DNA from: Nitrosospira multiformis ATCC 25196
GTDB taxonomy: Bacteria; Pseudomonadota; Gammaproteobacteria; Burkholderiales; Nitrosomonadaceae
Direction of reading: 5' to 3'
Assembly (NCBI RefSeq): GCF_000196355.1
Contig: NC_007614.1
Coordinates: 1,380,001 to 1,412,000, forward strand
DNA length: 32,000 nucleotides
The translations under genes were made by a program, and so were the position numbers. Of this stretch, positions 21,980-27,453 are shown one piece after another. The notes under the pieces are model-generated. The model was not told the DNA's origin, did no database searches, and worked only from the letters and a program-made list of their open reading frames with translations. Position 1 is the first letter of the stretch. The number at the start of each line of letters is the position of its first letter.

Positions 21980-22319
21980 TATCAGTCGCCAAAAAAGTCA
22001 GCATTATAGCGTAACGATAAGGCCGATGGCCTTTGGATTGATCTTCCAGTTTCTGCGGCAGTACTGCTGGAAATCAGTATGATTTGGGTACAGCCGGGAT
22101 GTTCATGACATTACTGGTGGTGGGATTGATCAGAATAGGAGGGATAGAAGCAGGGGAGAGGGGGAACAGCAGGAATTTCGGGACAAGGTGACGGTGGCCC
22201 ATTACCTCGCTCCAAGCCTCTGGTTTGCGTTCGCCCGAAGATGTGGACCCGTCTCTCTTGTGTCAGAAGTACGGGGAGTTTTAAACATACTTCCAATGAC
22301 GTTGACAGCGGTCATTACT

Positions 22320-22347
22320 ACGGCTGCTACTCGCAGCCGTTTTTTTG
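22320..22347 (+). terminator. Intrinsic-terminator-like hairpin plus T7 run, oriented for the plus strand
   Basis: ACGGCTGC-tactc-GCAGCCGT followed by TTTTTTT (22340-22346). The loop contains the TAG stop (22327-22329) of the minus-strand 106-aa ORF. Confidence 0.5.
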
Positions 22348-22647
22348 GCTGTTTTGTTCCTTAGGAGATCTTGTCGCAATTTGTGCCGAAAGAGTGGGAC
22401 GGATAGCTATTTGCGTTACCCTGTCTCTCGCCACTTCAAGACTTGCTGGACCGCCGACAGTGGTTTTTGACTCCCGGTCGGTAATATGCGCGACAAATTT
22501 GACGCATTTCCCATGGATCTCTTTCTGGGCAAAGACGATCCCCTCGTGATCGGATAGTTTTTTTTCGGCTTCAAAACCCAGTTCCCTGAGGCATTCCTGG
22601 ATCTTGTCGACAACATCTGCTTGAATGTTACGGGACGTTTCTTTCAT
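22327..22647 (-). CDS. Hypothetical protein, 106 aa
   Basis: Strong SD (AGGAGG, 5-nt spacer) before ATG 22647. It lies 28 nt downstream of the Trp-rich ORF. The N-terminal ~65 aa look folded (MKETSRNIQADVVDKIQECLRELGFEAEKK...) and the C-terminal ~40 aa are low-complexity. No family recognised. Confidence 0.55.
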   Translation of the reverse strand: MKETSRNIQADVVDKIQECLRELGFEAEKKLSDHEGIVFAQKEIHGKCVKFVAHITDRESKTTVGGPASLEVARDRVTQIAIRPTLSAQIATRSPKEQNSQKNGCE

Positions 22648-22675
22648 TTAATCCTCCTGATTGACTCTCCTATCC

Positions 22676-23371
22676 TCAGCGAGGCAGCAGCGCAATGGAA
22701 ACATGCTCGTCGACATTGACGTTCCCGCCACCCGTGCGAGTTCCGTCGCCGGGGAGCAAATAGAGCATGTCAAATCGACGCTCCGAGAACAGTGTCAAAC
22801 GATCATCGATCATGGATTGGAGCGTTGACATGCCGCCAGGAACAGCGTTATTCAGCGTATCACTTATTGCGCCGGTGCAGAAAGGGGCGCCCCCGTCATA
22901 GTGATAGCTCCACCAATCAACGTAGGCCCCCAGTTGTCCTGATGAATCCAGATATGGAATCACGTAATAATTTATGTTTCCATCTGCCTCCGAACAATAC
23001 CAGGGAGTGGAAACATGAAAATTGAAGAAAATTCTGATCAAAAGATCCAGATCGGCGTGGCGGCCTGGATCGTTTTCATGGAAAGGTACGTGACGCCAGG
23101 GTATCCACCCTGCTTTGATGTCAGACGTTCTCCTGGCGTTTTCACCGAGTAGTCTGTCTACTGCGGCCAGAATATCCGGGGCGTTGAGTAGGGGCGGAAG
23201 ATCTATTGCGATTTCCCTGTCTTCTCTTTCCCAGACCAATGTGCTGTCCGTGGAGCCAATATTGGGCCAGTTGATCCACGCCCAACACCCGGCGCAATGG
23301 CTTATGTTCAGAAACTCCGTATTACCTCGGAAATCTGTATCACTGAACCAGTAATTCGTAAGTATGGGCAT
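22676..23371 (-). CDS. Hypothetical Trp-rich protein, 231 aa
   Basis: The track ORF runs to 23521 (TTG/ATG without SD). ATG 23371 has GGGAGAG 7 nt upstream and an AT-rich promoter-like stretch beyond. It has 10 Trp and 4 Cys in 231 aa and no signal peptide. No family recognised. Confidence 0.6.
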   Translation of the reverse strand: MPILTNYWFSDTDFRGNTEFLNISHCAGCWAWINWPNIGSTDSTLVWEREDREIAIDLPPLLNAPDILAAVDRLLGENARRTSDIKAGWIPWRHVPFHENDPGRHADLDLLIRIFFNFHVSTPWYCSEADGNINYYVIPYLDSSGQLGAYVDWWSYHYDGGAPFCTGAISDTLNNAVPGGMSTLQSMIDDRLTLFSERRFDMLYLLPGDGTRTGGGNVNVDEHVSIALLPR

Positions 23372-23527
23372 CTCGATACTCTCCCGTTTACTATTGATAT
23401 ATTTCTTCCTTTCTTTCAGTAAATTTGCCTCTAGATCTGTAAACGCTGAAACAATTCGATTTAACTTTAGTCTCGTGCAGGGATAAGTCAAGTGGGGTAA
23501 ACCTGGCGCGTGAGGCATCAAAAGTAC

Positions 23528-23991
23528 TTATTGCTTGAACTTTGCCTCGGCGCGTTGCCTGATCTGCTCCAGCGACAGATCTTCCTTACGCGTCGTGATG
23601 AACCAGATATGGCCGAAAGGATCTTGCAGCGCGCCTGACCGGTCTCCATAAAACTGGTCTTCCAGCGGCTTGATGATCTTTGCTCCTTCTCCCACGGCCT
23701 GGTCAAACACCGCATCCACATCGTTCACATATAAATGCAAACCGACCGAAGAACTGCCGGAGGATTGCGGATTACGAAAAGGGCTTTCTTCGCCGCAGTC
23801 ATCCGCCATCATGATGCGCGAGTCACCGATCCGAATCTCCGCTGGCCGACTTTTCCATCTCGCGTATCCATCCTGAACAATTCCATTGCGCTGAAAGCAC
23901 GTTTGTAGAATGCGATCGCCTCAGCTGCTCCATCGATGATGAGGTAGGGAGTGATGCTGTGGTAACCATCGGGTATGGGTTTAACAATCAT
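23528..23991 (-). pseudogene. VOC/glyoxalase-family (PhnB-like) gene interrupted by a 1-nt frameshift
   Basis: ORFs 23809..23991 (MIVKPIPDGYHSITPYLIIDGAAEAIAFYKRAFSAMELFRMDTRDGKVG...) and 23528..23812 (...MMADD...SVGLHLYVNDVDAVFDQAVGEGAKIIKPLEDQFYGDRSGALQDPFGHIWFITTRKEDLS) are the N- and C-halves of one PhnB-like protein. Shifting frame at GTCGGCCA|GCGGAGATTCGGATCGGTGAC restores the expected (H)AEIRIGDSRIMMADD. Confidence 0.8.
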
Positions 23992-24160: not shown

Positions 24161-26827
24161 TTATTCGGGTTTTATCCAGGCGCCACACCGTTCATCCAGG
24201 CATTTCAACAGTGTCGGCACATCGATTCCCTGTTCTTTCAGCCTGTGTATGAGTTCCTCGCTGATCACATCCTTCTCCTGAAGGCAGTGCAGCAGGTTAC
24301 AGAAATCGTTGGCTTTTGGTTCGTTCGGATTCCATACATTACCCCCCGGGGTCGCAACCGCAGTAAGCGTGCGTTCCCGTTCAAAAGGCGTTCCCCGTGC
24401 CGTTTCACCGCGTGCACGCACCCGGATGTGGAAGACGCCTTGCACCTTGAGTGGATAGGCAGCGGTAAATTGCCCCTGTGGATCGCGGCTGAGTGGGATA
24501 AGCTCAGCAACTCCATCCGGTCGCACTATCTCCCCCCAGACCCTTGCATTTCCCTGAAGCGGCGCATCATATTCGTACAGTGCAGCGATCAGGTGAATAA
24601 TGGTATCCACCTTGAAACTCGCTTGCCTGACATACGTTGTGAAGGTCAAGCTCGAATAGATGTGCGCGACAAACTCATAAGGCAGCGCCGCGTGCTGTGC
24701 AGCAGATACCGAGGTTCCGCCCTGCAGTTTCAGTATTGCATGCCACTGCCCGGCATGGCTTCCGGCTGACTGAGCTGGAAGCACCGGCAACGCGCACCGG
24801 TAATAGGATGCATACGGGCTCAGGATGAATCGTGAATTGGTCGATCCCGGTGGTGACGCTGGCGTAATACTGGAACCGTCCGGCGCTTCAAGCTGAAAAT
24901 CGATCGCTCGCGGAAAAGGGCTCAATACGATCAGATCCATTCCATAATCCGCTTCACAGATCGAAACCGGGATACGATGCTCCGATTCCCTGCTGAGAAT
25001 ACCCCGCGGATCGGCGGTGATCTGGGCATTCGATACGCCCGCGAGAATTTGCAGGAAATACTTGCCGAGCCGCATGGGCTGGTCGCCCGAAAGTGCGCCG
25101 GTCACCAGAAGATATCCGTTATGTACCTGACATAGCGTCGCCAGTGCGGGAATGCTGATGTTGGAGGGCAGTCCCAGGCCAACCGCATAGGTATTTGCCG
25201 TGATGCTGCCCATGACGTCGGCTAGAGGCGGGGGACGATTCCACATTCCATCGGTGAGCACGACCATAGCGGTAACATCGTACGGCGTACCCGCCGTCGC
25301 TTGCGCGTCATCCAGCATCTGCTTTCCATTCACGACACCGTCACCGATGGAAGTGGCGCCAGCGGGATCGATATCGCTTCCGGCAATATGTTCAAGGGCA
25401 ATGGTCCGCCCCGTACCGCCCGGGGCAGCGCCAGCCTCCTGGATTTCCATCAGACGCTGGGCCGCTTCGTTGAAGCGGACCAAGCCGATACCGTCCGCCG
25501 GTTGCATGGCACTGATAAAAACATTGGCGGCTTCGCGCAGTTTCTGGACCTTGGAGATGCCATCGCCAGCATCTTCATTCATGCTGCCGGAGCGATCGAG
25601 CACGAGCGCGACTGCAGAACGGGGACGCGCAGTCGTGTTGGCAGCAATGTTGATTACCCAGCTTTCCCCCGTCTGGACGCAACGCACGGTAACGTTGCCG
25701 CTTGCAGTATCGCCTGGATTCGTGGAGGTGTAGGACAGCCAGAGCCGTGCGTAGGTAACCGGCAGAATCGGATCGCTCGCCACAGCAACGGAGGTGCCAT
25801 TCGGGGTACCGAATCCGCCGGTAGGGCCTGCGGTCATCTCAAATGTCAGGCTTCGGCAGGACACCACTTCCCATAGGATGGCCCGGTGTGTCGTTACACC
25901 GACACCCCCCATCCCGGCGGGAACATTCAGGAAGTTTATACTCGGGGTGGTCAGGGTGATCGATTCAGGGGGAAGAAACAGTTGCAGCGTTTGCCGGATT
26001 ACGCCTGCGCAGACGGGACAGAAAGGGGCGTAATCCCGCATATAACAGCTTGGCAGAGGGCGATAGGTGTCGCAGTCCGAGTAAATTGCGCCTTCATAGG
26101 TGCCTACCGCACCCGCTGCGGGAGGCATCGCGGGTGGGACGCAGACGGAGGCCGCGCAACCGGGGTCGCATTGTGACGGCATGGGAGTGCCCGGCGCGAT
26201 GAGGTCGCGCCACTTGTTAGTGGTGCGGCTGGTATCGCGTGTTACATTCGGCTGAGAGGGTTCTCCCGCCGGTGTGCCTGCGCCATTCCCTCCATACTCA
26301 TCGGCCAGTCCAAAAGCGCTGTGTCCCATTTCGTGGATCGCTATCTGCGCCGCCTGGGCATGGGTAGAGCACGTGGCGATCATTCCACCTGATCCTCCAT
26401 ACTTGCTCGAATTGACTATGCAAAGCACCTGATGCCTGAGCGGGACCTGGGCGGACGCAACGGACAACGCGAGCGCGGCATCCACGGTGAGCAGACGATC
26501 GAGCGGTGTTCCGGCAAAGATGCTGCAAAATGTCGCGTCAAAATAGGTATTGGCCGTGGTTGGAGTTCCTCCGGCGCATCCCGGATCGTCCGCGCCGCTT
26601 TCATTCGACACGATGTCGACACGGTGTACATTGATCCCGCAGAAGAGTTCGTCCAGGGGCGGAGTAGTGCGCAGGGCCGTGACAAAGTTCTGTACGTCGG
26701 TATGATACTGCGCCAACTCGGTCGCACGATATCCATCACCCAGGATGACCAGATTCCATCGGACACTATCGGAGCCGTGATCAACGATCTTCGTGGTGCC
26801 CACGACATACCCGTCACTCGCACTCAT
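24161..26827 (-). CDS. M64-like zinc metallopeptidase fused to a vWA domain and C-terminal beta-rich domains (888 aa), no signal peptide
   Basis: M64 hallmarks: RWNLVILGDGY, VNSSKYGGSGG, HEMGH (aa 165-169 = nt 26321-26335) followed by GLADEY, then YEGAIY..C..YRP...CYM.....FCPVC. vWA domain at aa ~403-590 with a complete MIDAS: DRSGS (aa 411-415 = nt 25583-25597), GATSIG, VLTDG. The C-terminal tail has 4 Cys (FCNLLHC...KCLDERC). Confidence 0.85.
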   Translation of the reverse strand: MSASDGYVVGTTKIVDHGSDSVRWNLVILGDGYRATELAQYHTDVQNFVTALRTTPPLDELFCGINVHRVDIVSNESGADDPGCAGGTPTTANTYFDATFCSIFAGTPLDRLLTVDAALALSVASAQVPLRHQVLCIVNSSKYGGSGGMIATCSTHAQAAQIAIHEMGHSAFGLADEYGGNGAGTPAGEPSQPNVTRDTSRTTNKWRDLIAPGTPMPSQCDPGCAASVCVPPAMPPAAGAVGTYEGAIYSDCDTYRPLPSCYMRDYAPFCPVCAGVIRQTLQLFLPPESITLTTPSINFLNVPAGMGGVGVTTHRAILWEVVSCRSLTFEMTAGPTGGFGTPNGTSVAVASDPILPVTYARLWLSYTSTNPGDTASGNVTVRCVQTGESWVINIAANTTARPRSAVALVLDRSGSMNEDAGDGISKVQKLREAANVFISAMQPADGIGLVRFNEAAQRLMEIQEAGAAPGGTGRTIALEHIAGSDIDPAGATSIGDGVVNGKQMLDDAQATAGTPYDVTAMVVLTDGMWNRPPPLADVMGSITANTYAVGLGLPSNISIPALATLCQVHNGYLLVTGALSGDQPMRLGKYFLQILAGVSNAQITADPRGILSRESEHRIPVSICEADYGMDLIVLSPFPRAIDFQLEAPDGSSITPASPPGSTNSRFILSPYASYYRCALPVLPAQSAGSHAGQWHAILKLQGGTSVSAAQHAALPYEFVAHIYSSLTFTTYVRQASFKVDTIIHLIAALYEYDAPLQGNARVWGEIVRPDGVAELIPLSRDPQGQFTAAYPLKVQGVFHIRVRARGETARGTPFERERTLTAVATPGGNVWNPNEPKANDFCNLLHCLQEKDVISEELIHRLKEQGIDVPTLLKCLDERCGAWIKPE

Positions 26828-27294
26828 TGCATGTCCCCTTTCTCTCCCCTCGGTATGTCAAACCGGGCCAACTCGGTTGAGGTGGCACGCTGCTGCGCGC
26901 CCGCAGCAGAAAGAGCGGAAAGGTCCAGCGACTCACCTATCAGGGCAATGGATTCGGCAGCAGGATTATCCGGAAGAAGCACTTCAAAAATACTCTCCTT
27001 GACCTCCCCAAATTTTCGTTCGATCTTGCCATCGGGTGAGTGCACCTCAACGGAGCCGATGAGCGGGGAATGGATAAGCCGATGAAACAGGACGTGGTTG
27101 TTCCCGTCCCGGAGTTCCATCCAGAAGCCACCATTTTTCCTGGCCTGAGGGGCTTCTCCGACCGAAGGCGGACAAATCATGGGAAGCCGCTCATACGAGA
27201 CAAGGTGAACCGCTCCATCTGCAACCCGGAATGTGAGTCTCAGCGTCCCGTGCTGATTGGGCTCGAGCCGGCGGGATTGATTCGAATTTGGCAT
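26824..27294 (-). CDS. Hypothetical protein, 156 aa, translationally coupled to the M64-vWA gene
   Basis: Strong SD AGGAGAAAG before ATG 27294. Its stop overlaps the downstream start as ATGA (26824-26827). The sequence is beta-rich with no TM or signal peptide. No family recognised. Confidence 0.65.
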   Translation of the reverse strand: MPNSNQSRRLEPNQHGTLRLTFRVADGAVHLVSYERLPMICPPSVGEAPQARKNGGFWMELRDGNNHVLFHRLIHSPLIGSVEVHSPDGKIERKFGEVKESIFEVLLPDNPAAESIALIGESLDLSALSAAGAQQRATSTELARFDIPRGEKGDMQ

Positions 27295-27453
27295 GCTTTC
27301 TCCTGTGAGTAGGAGGGTATGGTTTGCGGCGGCGATGCGTTGAAACTCGGTTCGCCGGTTCTAGTCCTGATGCCTGCTCCTGTTTACATGCGCTGTTCGC
27401 ACCCTGTGCGTTCCTGTTCGCCCGCCGAATCCGCTGAGCTATCCGGAGCCATC

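Follow-up and report, generated by a model that had tools for sequence, protein, structure and literature searches.

A predicted two-subunit M64 metallopeptidase with a separately encoded cap-like partner in Nitrosospira multiformis and its relatives

Introduction

Two overlapping genes of Nitrosospira multiformis ATCC 25196, lying within a stretch of 32,000 nucleotides (nt) of contig NC_007614.1 (the whole of which is called the window here), encode a small protein of 156 amino acids (aa) and a large protein of 888 aa. We propose, with moderate confidence, that the pair is a cytoplasmic two-subunit zinc metallopeptidase of family M64, in which a cap or chaperone is encoded in trans and the catalytic domain is carried on a target-binding scaffold that includes a von Willebrand factor A (vWA) domain. 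By profile, motif and predicted fold the large protein is a member of the M64 family and thus a predicted peptidase, and the small protein is best explained, from structural models, as the equivalent of the N-terminal domain (NTD) of M64 enzymes. The M64 family itself is known; what is new here is an M64 enzyme with a trans-encoded cap-like subunit, no export signals, and a vWA scaffold that is common to other enzyme heads.

The gene pair and its translation signals

A sequence-only reading of the window had drawn attention to an 888-aa open reading frame (ORF) whose ATG overlaps, as ATGA, the stop codon of a 156-aa ORF with a strong Shine-Dalgarno sequence. Both ORFs, their overlap and the Shine-Dalgarno sequence were verified, with the following coordinates in the window:

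26824-27294, minus strand: small-subunit gene, ORF of 156 aa (identical protein ABB74526.1 / Q2Y9P5)
24161-26827, minus strand: large-subunit gene, ORF of 888 aa (identical protein ABB74525.1 / Q2Y9P6)
27299-27304, minus strand: Shine-Dalgarno sequence AGGAGA, 4 nt before the small-gene ATG (27292-27294), read from the sequence
26824-26827, minus strand: ATGA overlap of the small-gene TGA (26824-26826) with the large-gene ATG (26825-26827)
26834-26850, minus strand: purine-rich run AGGGGAGAGAAAGGGGA within the 3' end of the small gene, before the large-gene ATG

The purine-rich run may serve the large gene as an internal ribosome-binding site. Around the operon, simple scans for promoters and terminators did not rise above the shuffled background.

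Domain architecture of the large protein

The AlphaFold2 (AF2) model of the large protein (pLDDT 81) resolves six parts, which are listed here together with the two signature motifs:

25973-26827, minus strand: M64 catalytic domain, aa 1-285 (Pfam, sequence match in the Protein Data Bank (PDB), Foldseek, AF2)
26321-26335, minus strand: HEMGH zinc-binding and catalytic motif, aa 165-169, with the third ligand D176 in GLADEY, aa 173-178
25631-25963, minus strand: first immunoglobulin (Ig)-like beta-sandwich, aa 289-399 (AF2; domain hidden Markov model (HMM) 'Ig1')
25034-25618, minus strand: vWA domain, aa 404-598 (Pfam VWA_2 and VWA), with a metal-ion-dependent adhesion site (MIDAS) at D411, S413, S415, T492 and D526
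25583-25597, minus strand: DRSGS, the DxSxS part of the MIDAS, aa 411-415 (sequence; invariant in homologues)
24725-25024, minus strand: second beta-sandwich, aa 602-701 (AF2; HMM 'B2', conserved in relatives)
24353-24688, minus strand: third beta-sandwich, filamin-like, aa 714-825 (AF2; HMM 'B3', conserved in relatives)
24182-24307, minus strand: three-helix C-terminal tail, aa 841-882, with two CX4C motifs (C843/C848 and C876/C881)

The assignment of the catalytic domain draws on several kinds of evidence. Pfam Peptidase_M64 (PF09471) matches aa 14-218 at E 8e-33 (114.3 bits, cut-off 26), and the closest sequence match in the PDB is 4df9/3p1v (phmmer E 1e-22). The family motif HEXXHXXXGXXD (PMC12402451) is complete, reading H165-E166-M-G-H169-S-A-F-G173-L-A-D176. 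In Foldseek, the predicted model of the domain matched the Bacteroides enzyme BF3526 at E 7e-15 and ThomasA, the IgA protease of Thomasclavelia ramosa, at E 2e-11 to 8e-10. The vWA domain exceeds the cut-offs of both of its profiles across aa 406-552 (VWA_2, E 3.8e-8, 34.3 bits vs 27; VWA, E 2e-6, 28.5 bits vs 23.8), and its fold matches 4fx5, the vWA domain of CLCA1 (6pyo) and ArnB. In an alignment of 62 homologues with a mean column identity of 67%, the residues H165, E166, H169 and D176, as well as all five MIDAS residues, are invariant. The M64 core with an intact HEMGH...GLADEY, the vWA domain with a complete MIDAS (DRSGS / T / D), and about three further beta-rich segments with a 4-Cys helical tail had all been read from the letters beforehand; the two Pfam searches proposed at that time gave significant matches, and the model turned the beta-rich segments into three beta-sandwiches and placed the cysteines at 843, 848, 876 and 881.

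The Ig1 HMM recurs in relatives headed by M64, M14 and tyrosinase domains, the third beta-sandwich has weak Filamin matches in relatives, and in a subset of homologues the tail is exchanged for about four hydrophobic helices. The stretch at aa 179-273 is the most conserved of the large protein, yet it is the least confident in the monomer model, with a Cys-rich loop (aa 179-257) at pLDDT 45-58 despite many invariant residues. This fits a surface that is ordered only together with a partner or a metal, and the stretch is likely an interface. A metal-binding or redox role of the Cys-rich loop or the CX4C tail is speculation.

The small protein as a proposed detached M64 N-terminal domain

BF3526 is built from a beta-sandwich NTD (residues 21-145), a linker (146-162) and a catalytic domain (163-426) (PMC12402451). 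Its NTD limits access, and cleavage is thereby directed to sites close to free N-termini in proteins that have already been digested; removal of the NTD by chymotrypsin leads to non-specific proteolysis, and the catalytic domain alone could not be expressed (PMC12402451). The large protein of the window, in its AF2 model, opens with the catalytic domain itself, and an N-terminal beta-sandwich is missing.

The small protein is modelled by AF2 as all-beta (pLDDT 79), with a beta-sandwich core at aa 17-154. When this predicted model was compared with 350,542 PDB chains by Foldseek, the 11 best matches were all BF3526 (4DF9, 9QDI) or BACOVA_00663 (3P1V), which are also the best matches of the adjacent gene's catalytic domain. 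These 11 matches had probabilities of 0.91-0.99 at E ~1e-2, the aligned target range not being reported, and the next matches fell below 0.5. Furthermore, motif mapping placed the conserved motifs of the small protein in the same order as in the NTD of BF3526; on this mapping the small protein ends near BF3526 residue 155 and the large protein begins near residue 153, and the gene boundary therefore falls within the BF3526 linker. Because of the fold match, the missing NTD of the large protein and the position of the boundary in the linker, the small protein is best explained as the M64 NTD equivalent encoded in trans. A Foldseek search of the 156-aa partner had been suggested in the sequence-only reading; it did bring M64 enzymes to the top, with marginal E-values of ~1e-2 and with sequence profiles giving no support.

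Conservation of the pair and genomic context

Homologues of the large protein number in the hundreds at 57-77% identity and are found in Nitrosospira, Nitrococcus, Saprospiraceae, Vicinamibacterales, Anaerolineales, Rhodospirillaceae, Nakamurella and others. The pair as such spans Proteobacteria, Bacteroidota, Chloroflexi, Acidobacteriota, Actinobacteria, Firmicutes and one archaeal metagenome-assembled genome (MAG). With profile HMMs, the small gene was located directly upstream in 27/27 genome-derived loci with the window architecture, including that of Thioclava, where tblastn had missed it. Across a wider survey it directly precedes the M64 gene in 92 of 99 informative loci, and in all 92 loci of the window's M64 clade. 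The seven loci scored without it hold distant M64s (32-36% identity), one of which, L104, has a weak upstream match (E 6e-4). The junction is most commonly a 4-nt overlap (36 loci), followed by -14 nt and -1 nt (8 loci each), and ranges from -14 to +35 nt, the sole exception being an exported relative, L091, at +70. The earlier expectation of a dedicated, translationally coupled partner that precedes the homologues is thus borne out, and since both proteins and their adjacency are conserved, the pair is not a chance product.

No third conserved gene was found: when flanking ORFs from 39 loci were clustered, only the small and large families recurred. The window neighbours DUF5996, a VOC gene, ccmA and ccmB show no conservation beyond Nitrosospira and Nitrosovibrio, and the first two were rejected as members of the system on that ground. 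A downstream 281-aa ORF was likewise dismissed as a third component, since it lies in a 1.2-kb insertion peculiar to the strain and none of the other loci has it. Glyoxalase/VOC genes also flank the pair in L118 (7020-7412 and 12154-12519), as one does in Nitrosospira, and a tyrosinase + DUF7868 gene lies divergently upstream of it in L026 (7599-9056, minus strand); both are possible recurring neighbours.

Ten contexts were sampled, namely nine related loci and the window, and are given as raw counts. Mobile-element or defence-type genes are present in 5/9 related loci: TIR, SIR2 and a recombinase in Saprospiraceae, transposases in Nitrococcus, an integrase and a transposase in L116, transposases and DruA in L117, and a toxin-antitoxin pair in Nakamurella. 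The other four have mainly ordinary housekeeping contexts; on a second contig of the Anaerolineales locus, which is one of these, a transposase is inserted just upstream of the pair. The window is also a housekeeping context, and the pair keeps its position throughout Nitrosospira and Nitrosovibrio. Among viral contigs and phage records, the only relatives were canonical M64 domains at ~30% identity, and none of these contigs and records carried the module. Two individual copies may be mentioned. A contig binned as Methanosarcina sp. (MAG; L011, 2683-5882) carries a complete pair at 74% identity, from either inter-domain transfer or a binning error. In an Alphaproteobacteria MAG (L024, 182-3063) the large gene is broken over at least three reading frames and looks like a decaying module copy.

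Family of the small protein and its choice of partner

The 156-aa protein has no match in Pfam, NCBIfam or PADLOC, and it had been regarded as an orphan. This view does not hold: 188 close homologues were found, and of 1.84 billion cluster representatives 938 match at E<=1e-3, the best 150 of these being all small proteins of 68-290 aa. Neither was the partner found to be dedicated to the vWA fusion, as had been supposed. In metagenomes, the small gene also precedes M64-only genes of ~290 aa and genes of ~635 aa that combine M64 with a C-terminal half showing weak fucose-lectin (beta-propeller) matches. In Ralstonia pseudosolanacearum it stands before a megaplasmid gene for M64 with six TIG repeats, and in Bacillus wiedmannii before a plasmid-borne M64-only gene. 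Since M64 genes that have no vWA scaffold are also preceded by the small gene, the small protein is tied to the M64 catalytic domain as its constant companion and does not follow the scaffold. For divergent members of the family, a scan of metagenomes with P0279 found nothing, and the contigs for P0300, P0330 and P0387 were too short to show a partner.

The small subunits upstream of M64-only genes (L059-L064, L071, L073) have a Lys/Ala/Pro-rich basic N-terminal tail of 40-50 residues, e.g. MVARKATRKSKASKKTKPAKKTSKTKARKK..., whose likeness to histone H1 tails suggests binding to nucleic acid or another polyanion. We also considered whether ELARF, a conserved C-terminal motif of the small protein, is a free MIDAS ligand, and rejected this: the motif is a strand of the sandwich in the model, and the protein accompanies M64 proteins without a vWA domain.

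Cellular location

Neither protein has an N-terminal hydrophobic segment, in agreement with the earlier remark that a signal peptide and a lipobox are absent, and no Sec, Tat or lipoprotein signal was found on either of them in well over 100 sequences from diderms, monoderms and archaea. N-terminal hydropathy above 2.0 within the first 50 residues occurs in 0/62 large and 1/67 small homologues, exported controls reaching 2.3-2.6; the maximum in the large family is 0.93, compared with 2.49 for BF3526. In L091 and L104, which are remote relatives and exported, the small protein and the M64 protein alike have a hydrophobic signal or anchor at the N-terminus. The missing signals of the window pair are meaningful because exported relatives carry ordinary signals on both proteins. 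In the variants with about four hydrophobic C-terminal helices and in a trypsin-vWA protein of L116 with a tail anchor, basic residues lie on the N-terminal side, a predicted topology that would place the enzyme on the cytoplasmic side. The Lys-rich basic tails of the small subunits in the M64-only group were also counted toward the cytoplasm. The best reading, which agrees with the location proposed at the outset, is that the window proteins are probably cytoplasmic and that some variants may reside at the inner membrane face.

A scaffold with exchangeable enzyme heads

The Ig-vWA-beta-beta-tail scaffold of the window protein also occurs under other enzymes. A 1030-aa paralogue in Thioclava (L021, 8725-11817, minus strand) has a Peptidase_M14 head (E 5e-45) on the same scaffold and adjoins that organism's own M64 version in convergent orientation; its partner ORF (L021, 11857-12234, minus strand) is separated from the large gene by ~39 nt. 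A second M14 head (E 3e-52) is found on plasmid p1 of Caballeronia insecticola (L113, 2900-5791), with a small ORF at 2481-2903. Tyrosinase heads are present in Microvirga ossetica (L111, 2964-5830; E 5e-28) and in the archaeon Haloarcula sp. JP-L23 (L112, 2780-5857; E 9e-43), neither with a signal peptide, and these genes have abutting upstream ORFs of 66-84 aa. The small ORFs overlap or abut the large gene in Caballeronia, Microvirga and Haloarcula through ATGA, TGATG and TAGATG junctions. The Thioclava and Caballeronia M14 partners are homologous to each other (E 2e-8), and the Thioclava partner has no sequence match in the PDB. M14 partners may be pro-segment-like proteins acting in trans, and tyrosinase partners might be caddie-like.

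Because M14 and tyrosinase heads sit on the scaffold, each with its own small upstream ORF, the scaffold is a predicted general platform for enzymes with a separately encoded helper. In addition, a protein of ~960-1050 aa that joins a trypsin-like peptidase to a vWA domain directly adjoins the small + M64 pair in two unrelated metagenome loci (L116, 10785-13676, complete; L075, 1-3159, running off the contig start), which hints at multi-peptidase operons. It has the vWA domain and the beta-region after it in common with the window protein (E 2e-22); the L116 version lacks an N-terminal signal and ends in a hydrophobic tail anchor. The literature search found no description of a tyrosinase combined with a vWA domain.

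Alternative explanations

Several results weigh against a cytoplasmic enzyme with a detached cap. PF16217 (M64_N) matched none of 67 small-protein members even at E<=10, a profile search of the PDB with the small protein found no M64 protein, and hhalign of the small protein against the NTD of the BF3526 clade gave P = 0.06, a score that 5/120 column shuffles reached and that the reversed control equalled. Among the best 150 of the 938 family representatives, none was a Rosetta-stone fusion with M64. For the other heads, what the tyrosinase partners have in common is limited to a short motif (E 0.04), and the M14 and tyrosinase partners have no similarity to Propep_M14, MelC1 or any known propeptide or caddie family (Pfam, E<=10). 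Furthermore, vWA, Ig/filamin, TIG, lectin-like propeller, M14 and tyrosinase domains usually occur in extracellular proteins, and a cytoplasmically active tyrosinase would be unusual.

Part of this evidence would favour a small protein that is an unrelated, dedicated inhibitor or immunity protein of a protease toxin, with a merely generic beta-sandwich likeness to the NTD. Sequence profiles do not support homology, the Foldseek statistics are marginal, and tight translational coupling is typical of toxin-immunity pairs too. We nevertheless regard this as improbable: a random fold match would very rarely single out the adjacent gene's own family as best, the length, order and boundary are collinear with BF3526, exactly that domain is absent from the large protein, and no trafficking or toxin-delivery domains or genes are present. 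The partner also lies upstream, whereas immunity genes usually lie downstream of the toxin gene. The comparison with protease-inhibitor, protease-chaperone and effector-immunity pairs in the sequence-only reading named broadly the right category as far as a chaperone or inhibitor-like role is concerned, and the unrelated partner gives way, on the Foldseek and boundary evidence, to the family's own N-terminal beta-sandwich in trans as the best explanation. Likewise, there is a negligible chance that the split is an artefact and that a frameshift or sequencing error has cut a single gene in two in this strain. A genuine frameshift of such a kind does lie 170 nt downstream, in the VOC gene, but the two-gene layout with its own start and stop codons is conserved at 92 loci in many phyla, and this layout together with the lack of fused forms among the same 150 representatives refutes the artefact. 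Unconventional export, which would make the pair an extracellular adhesin-protease laid out like eukaryotic CLCA with the small protein as a secretion chaperone, agrees with the extracellular habit of the domain types (vWA, Ig/filamin, TIG, lectin-like propeller) and of the characterised M64 members, and with the weak vWA-level similarity to CLCA; the Streptomyces tyrosinase, moreover, is exported together with its caddie. It is an unlikely explanation all the same, considering the absence of Sec, Tat and lipoprotein signals in the sequences surveyed, the ordinary N-terminal signals or anchors on both proteins of the family's exported relatives, the lack of any recurring secretion-system gene nearby, and the topology of the membrane-anchored variants, which puts the enzyme on the cytoplasmic side.

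Comparison with known systems

The closest characterised relatives are BF3526 and BACOVA_00663 from Bacteroides (4DF9, 9QDI, 3P1V), which belong to cluster CL-I (PMC12402451) and have a homologous catalytic domain with the same HEXXHXXXGXXD. The order of NTD and catalytic domain, their sizes and their boundary match the small and large proteins of the window. However, in BF3526 one polypeptide of 426 aa, exported as a lipoprotein, has the NTD in cis and no further domains, whereas the window pair has a separate, putative NTD equivalent, no signal peptides, and ~600 extra residues (Ig, vWA, two beta-sandwiches and tail). With respect to the canonical CL-I architecture, PF16217 M64_N plus PF09471 in one exported polypeptide, the window pair thus lacks the cis NTD, the M64_N profile match, and the signal peptide or lipobox. 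ThomasA, the founding M64 member, resembles the window protein in that beta-sandwiches follow the M64 fold; it differs in being secreted and cell-wall anchored, in its DUF6273 N-terminal domain, in having neither a vWA domain nor a separate partner, and in recognising the Fab region of IgA (PMC12402451).

Eukaryotic CLCA has the same order of zincin protease, vWA with MIDAS and beta-sandwiches, and the vWA domain of the window protein matches 6pyo (TM 0.79 on the target). The protease of the window protein is M64 and not of the CLCA type, CLCA is not known to have a separate small partner, and the NCBIfam model hCaCC reaches just 17.6 bits against a cut-off of 900.85, in the vWA region only. 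CLCA proteins are secreted and self-cleaving.

Helper proteins and pro-domains are known from lipase-specific foldases and from the pro-segments of M14 procarboxypeptidases. The same concept is seen in the Streptomyces tyrosinase caddie, a small dedicated protein that occupies or shields the active site and is needed for an active enzyme (PMC6312201). All three systems differ from the window pair in that they are exported and none is mounted on a vWA scaffold.

The nearest concept is that of the vWA-MoxR ternary conflict systems (Kaur, Burroughs, Iyer, Aravind 2020, PMC7159879), in which a cytoplasmic vWA domain is proposed to capture peptides and is fused to variable effectors, including peptidases, in horizontally mobile systems. 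These systems need a MoxR AAA+ ATPase and a third component (VMAP, iSTAND, FtsH or propeller), and their effectors sit on the C-terminal side of the vWA domain and are often inactive. In the window pair, by contrast, the enzyme head is N-terminal, the catalytic residues are invariant, and neither an ATPase nor a third gene recurs in the 39 loci; no AAA+ gene was present in nine annotated neighbourhoods. Toxin-immunity and polymorphic toxin systems require an N-terminal trafficking domain, a C-terminal toxin and downstream immunity, whereas the window pair has an N-terminal enzyme, an upstream partner, and no trafficking domain or secretion gene. The PADLOC-DB 2.0 models matched neither the large protein, the small protein nor two neighbours, and the literature search found no report that links M64 with vWA or describes such a system. 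The architecture thus matches no described system among those compared, which agrees with the earlier difficulty in assigning it to a pathway.

Proposed mechanism and biological role

In our model of the two-subunit M64 peptidase, the small cap and the catalytic subunit would be co-translated through the ATGA coupling, at a roughly 1:1 yield, and would assemble into a complex. By analogy with BF3526, the cap may aid folding of the catalytic domain and may cover the non-primed side of the active-site cleft, so that only short, free N-termini would be accepted until the cap moves or is lost. The MIDAS metal and the flanking sandwiches would bind a protein or peptide target and present it to the enzyme head; that target binding displaces the cap is speculation, and the gating of the protease by a vWA ligand, suggested in the sequence-only reading, is likewise conjecture. 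Complex formation, the capping or chaperone role, target binding by the vWA domain and the cytoplasmic location are thus all to be read as inferred. As candidate roles, such an enzyme may carry out regulated N-terminal processing within the cell, or it may be the latent effector of a conflict system.

The latter candidate can be stated as an anti-phage or conflict module, in which the vWA domain senses an invader protein and the peptidase is a toxic effector kept latent by the small protein, its release leading to abortive infection. As a proposal on the biological role, it can stand beside the two-subunit structural reading. It would suit the patchy distribution over phyla with 57-77% identity between them, which speaks for horizontal transfer, the loci among mobile or defence genes (Saprospiraceae, Nitrococcus, L116, L117, Nakamurella), and the swapped heads on a constant scaffold, which together with trypsin-vWA paralogues in the same operon resemble effector diversity (Kaur et al. 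2020, PMC7159879). However, PADLOC gave no match, the anti-phage literature searched holds nothing comparable, the mean column identity is higher than would be usual for a gene in an arms race, roughly one half of the contexts sampled are housekeeping and the position is stable in Nitrosospira and Nitrosovibrio, and a MoxR or NTPase component is missing. On balance this role seems rather doubtful to us.

A wider proposal, tentative and only a little less doubtful, is that of an undescribed class of two-gene modules in bacteria and archaea. In such modules, an extracellular-type head (M64, M14 or tyrosinase, with trypsin-vWA alongside) would be kept intracellular on the Ig-vWA-beta-beta-Cys-tail scaffold, latent under a head-specific mini-protein equivalent to a pro-domain or caddie, and would be freed by MIDAS target capture to act as a triggered effector, e.g. 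in defence or programmed cell death.

Downstream surroundings

Just downstream of the pair, the VOC/glyoxalase-family gene (23528-23991, minus strand) is split into ORFs of 60 aa and 94 aa by a 1-nt deletion near 23843 relative to N. multiformis strain Nl18 (GTCGGCCA-GCGGAG vs GTCGGCCATGCGGAG). The gene is one frame in other strains, and the ATCC 25196 version is either a pseudogene or a sequencing error. Farther on, a 1.2-kb insertion of lower GC content (~0.50; ~22311-23505) is absent from strains Nl18 and Nl12. It holds most of the 281-aa ORF (22676-23521; no Pfam, NCBIfam or PADLOC match) and the entire 106-aa ORF (22327-22647), and it is strain-specific and outside the M64 module.

Significance

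Of the ~7,000 M64 proteins known (the published network has 6,830), only two, both exported by gut bacteria, are characterised enzymes. The present analysis adds a large cross-phylum M64 branch that appears to work inside the cell and is paired throughout with a separately encoded small protein, from a family of 938 clusters without any annotation; in the sub-branch of the window, the enzyme is mounted on a vWA scaffold that also bears carboxypeptidase and tyrosinase heads. If these enzymes were triggered effectors, conflict systems based on proteases would gain a new type. Should the small protein indeed be the detached cap, the small-protein family would receive its first functional annotation, and the pair would be a natural experiment in which the gate of a protease has become a dissociable subunit, making regulation by cap release directly testable.

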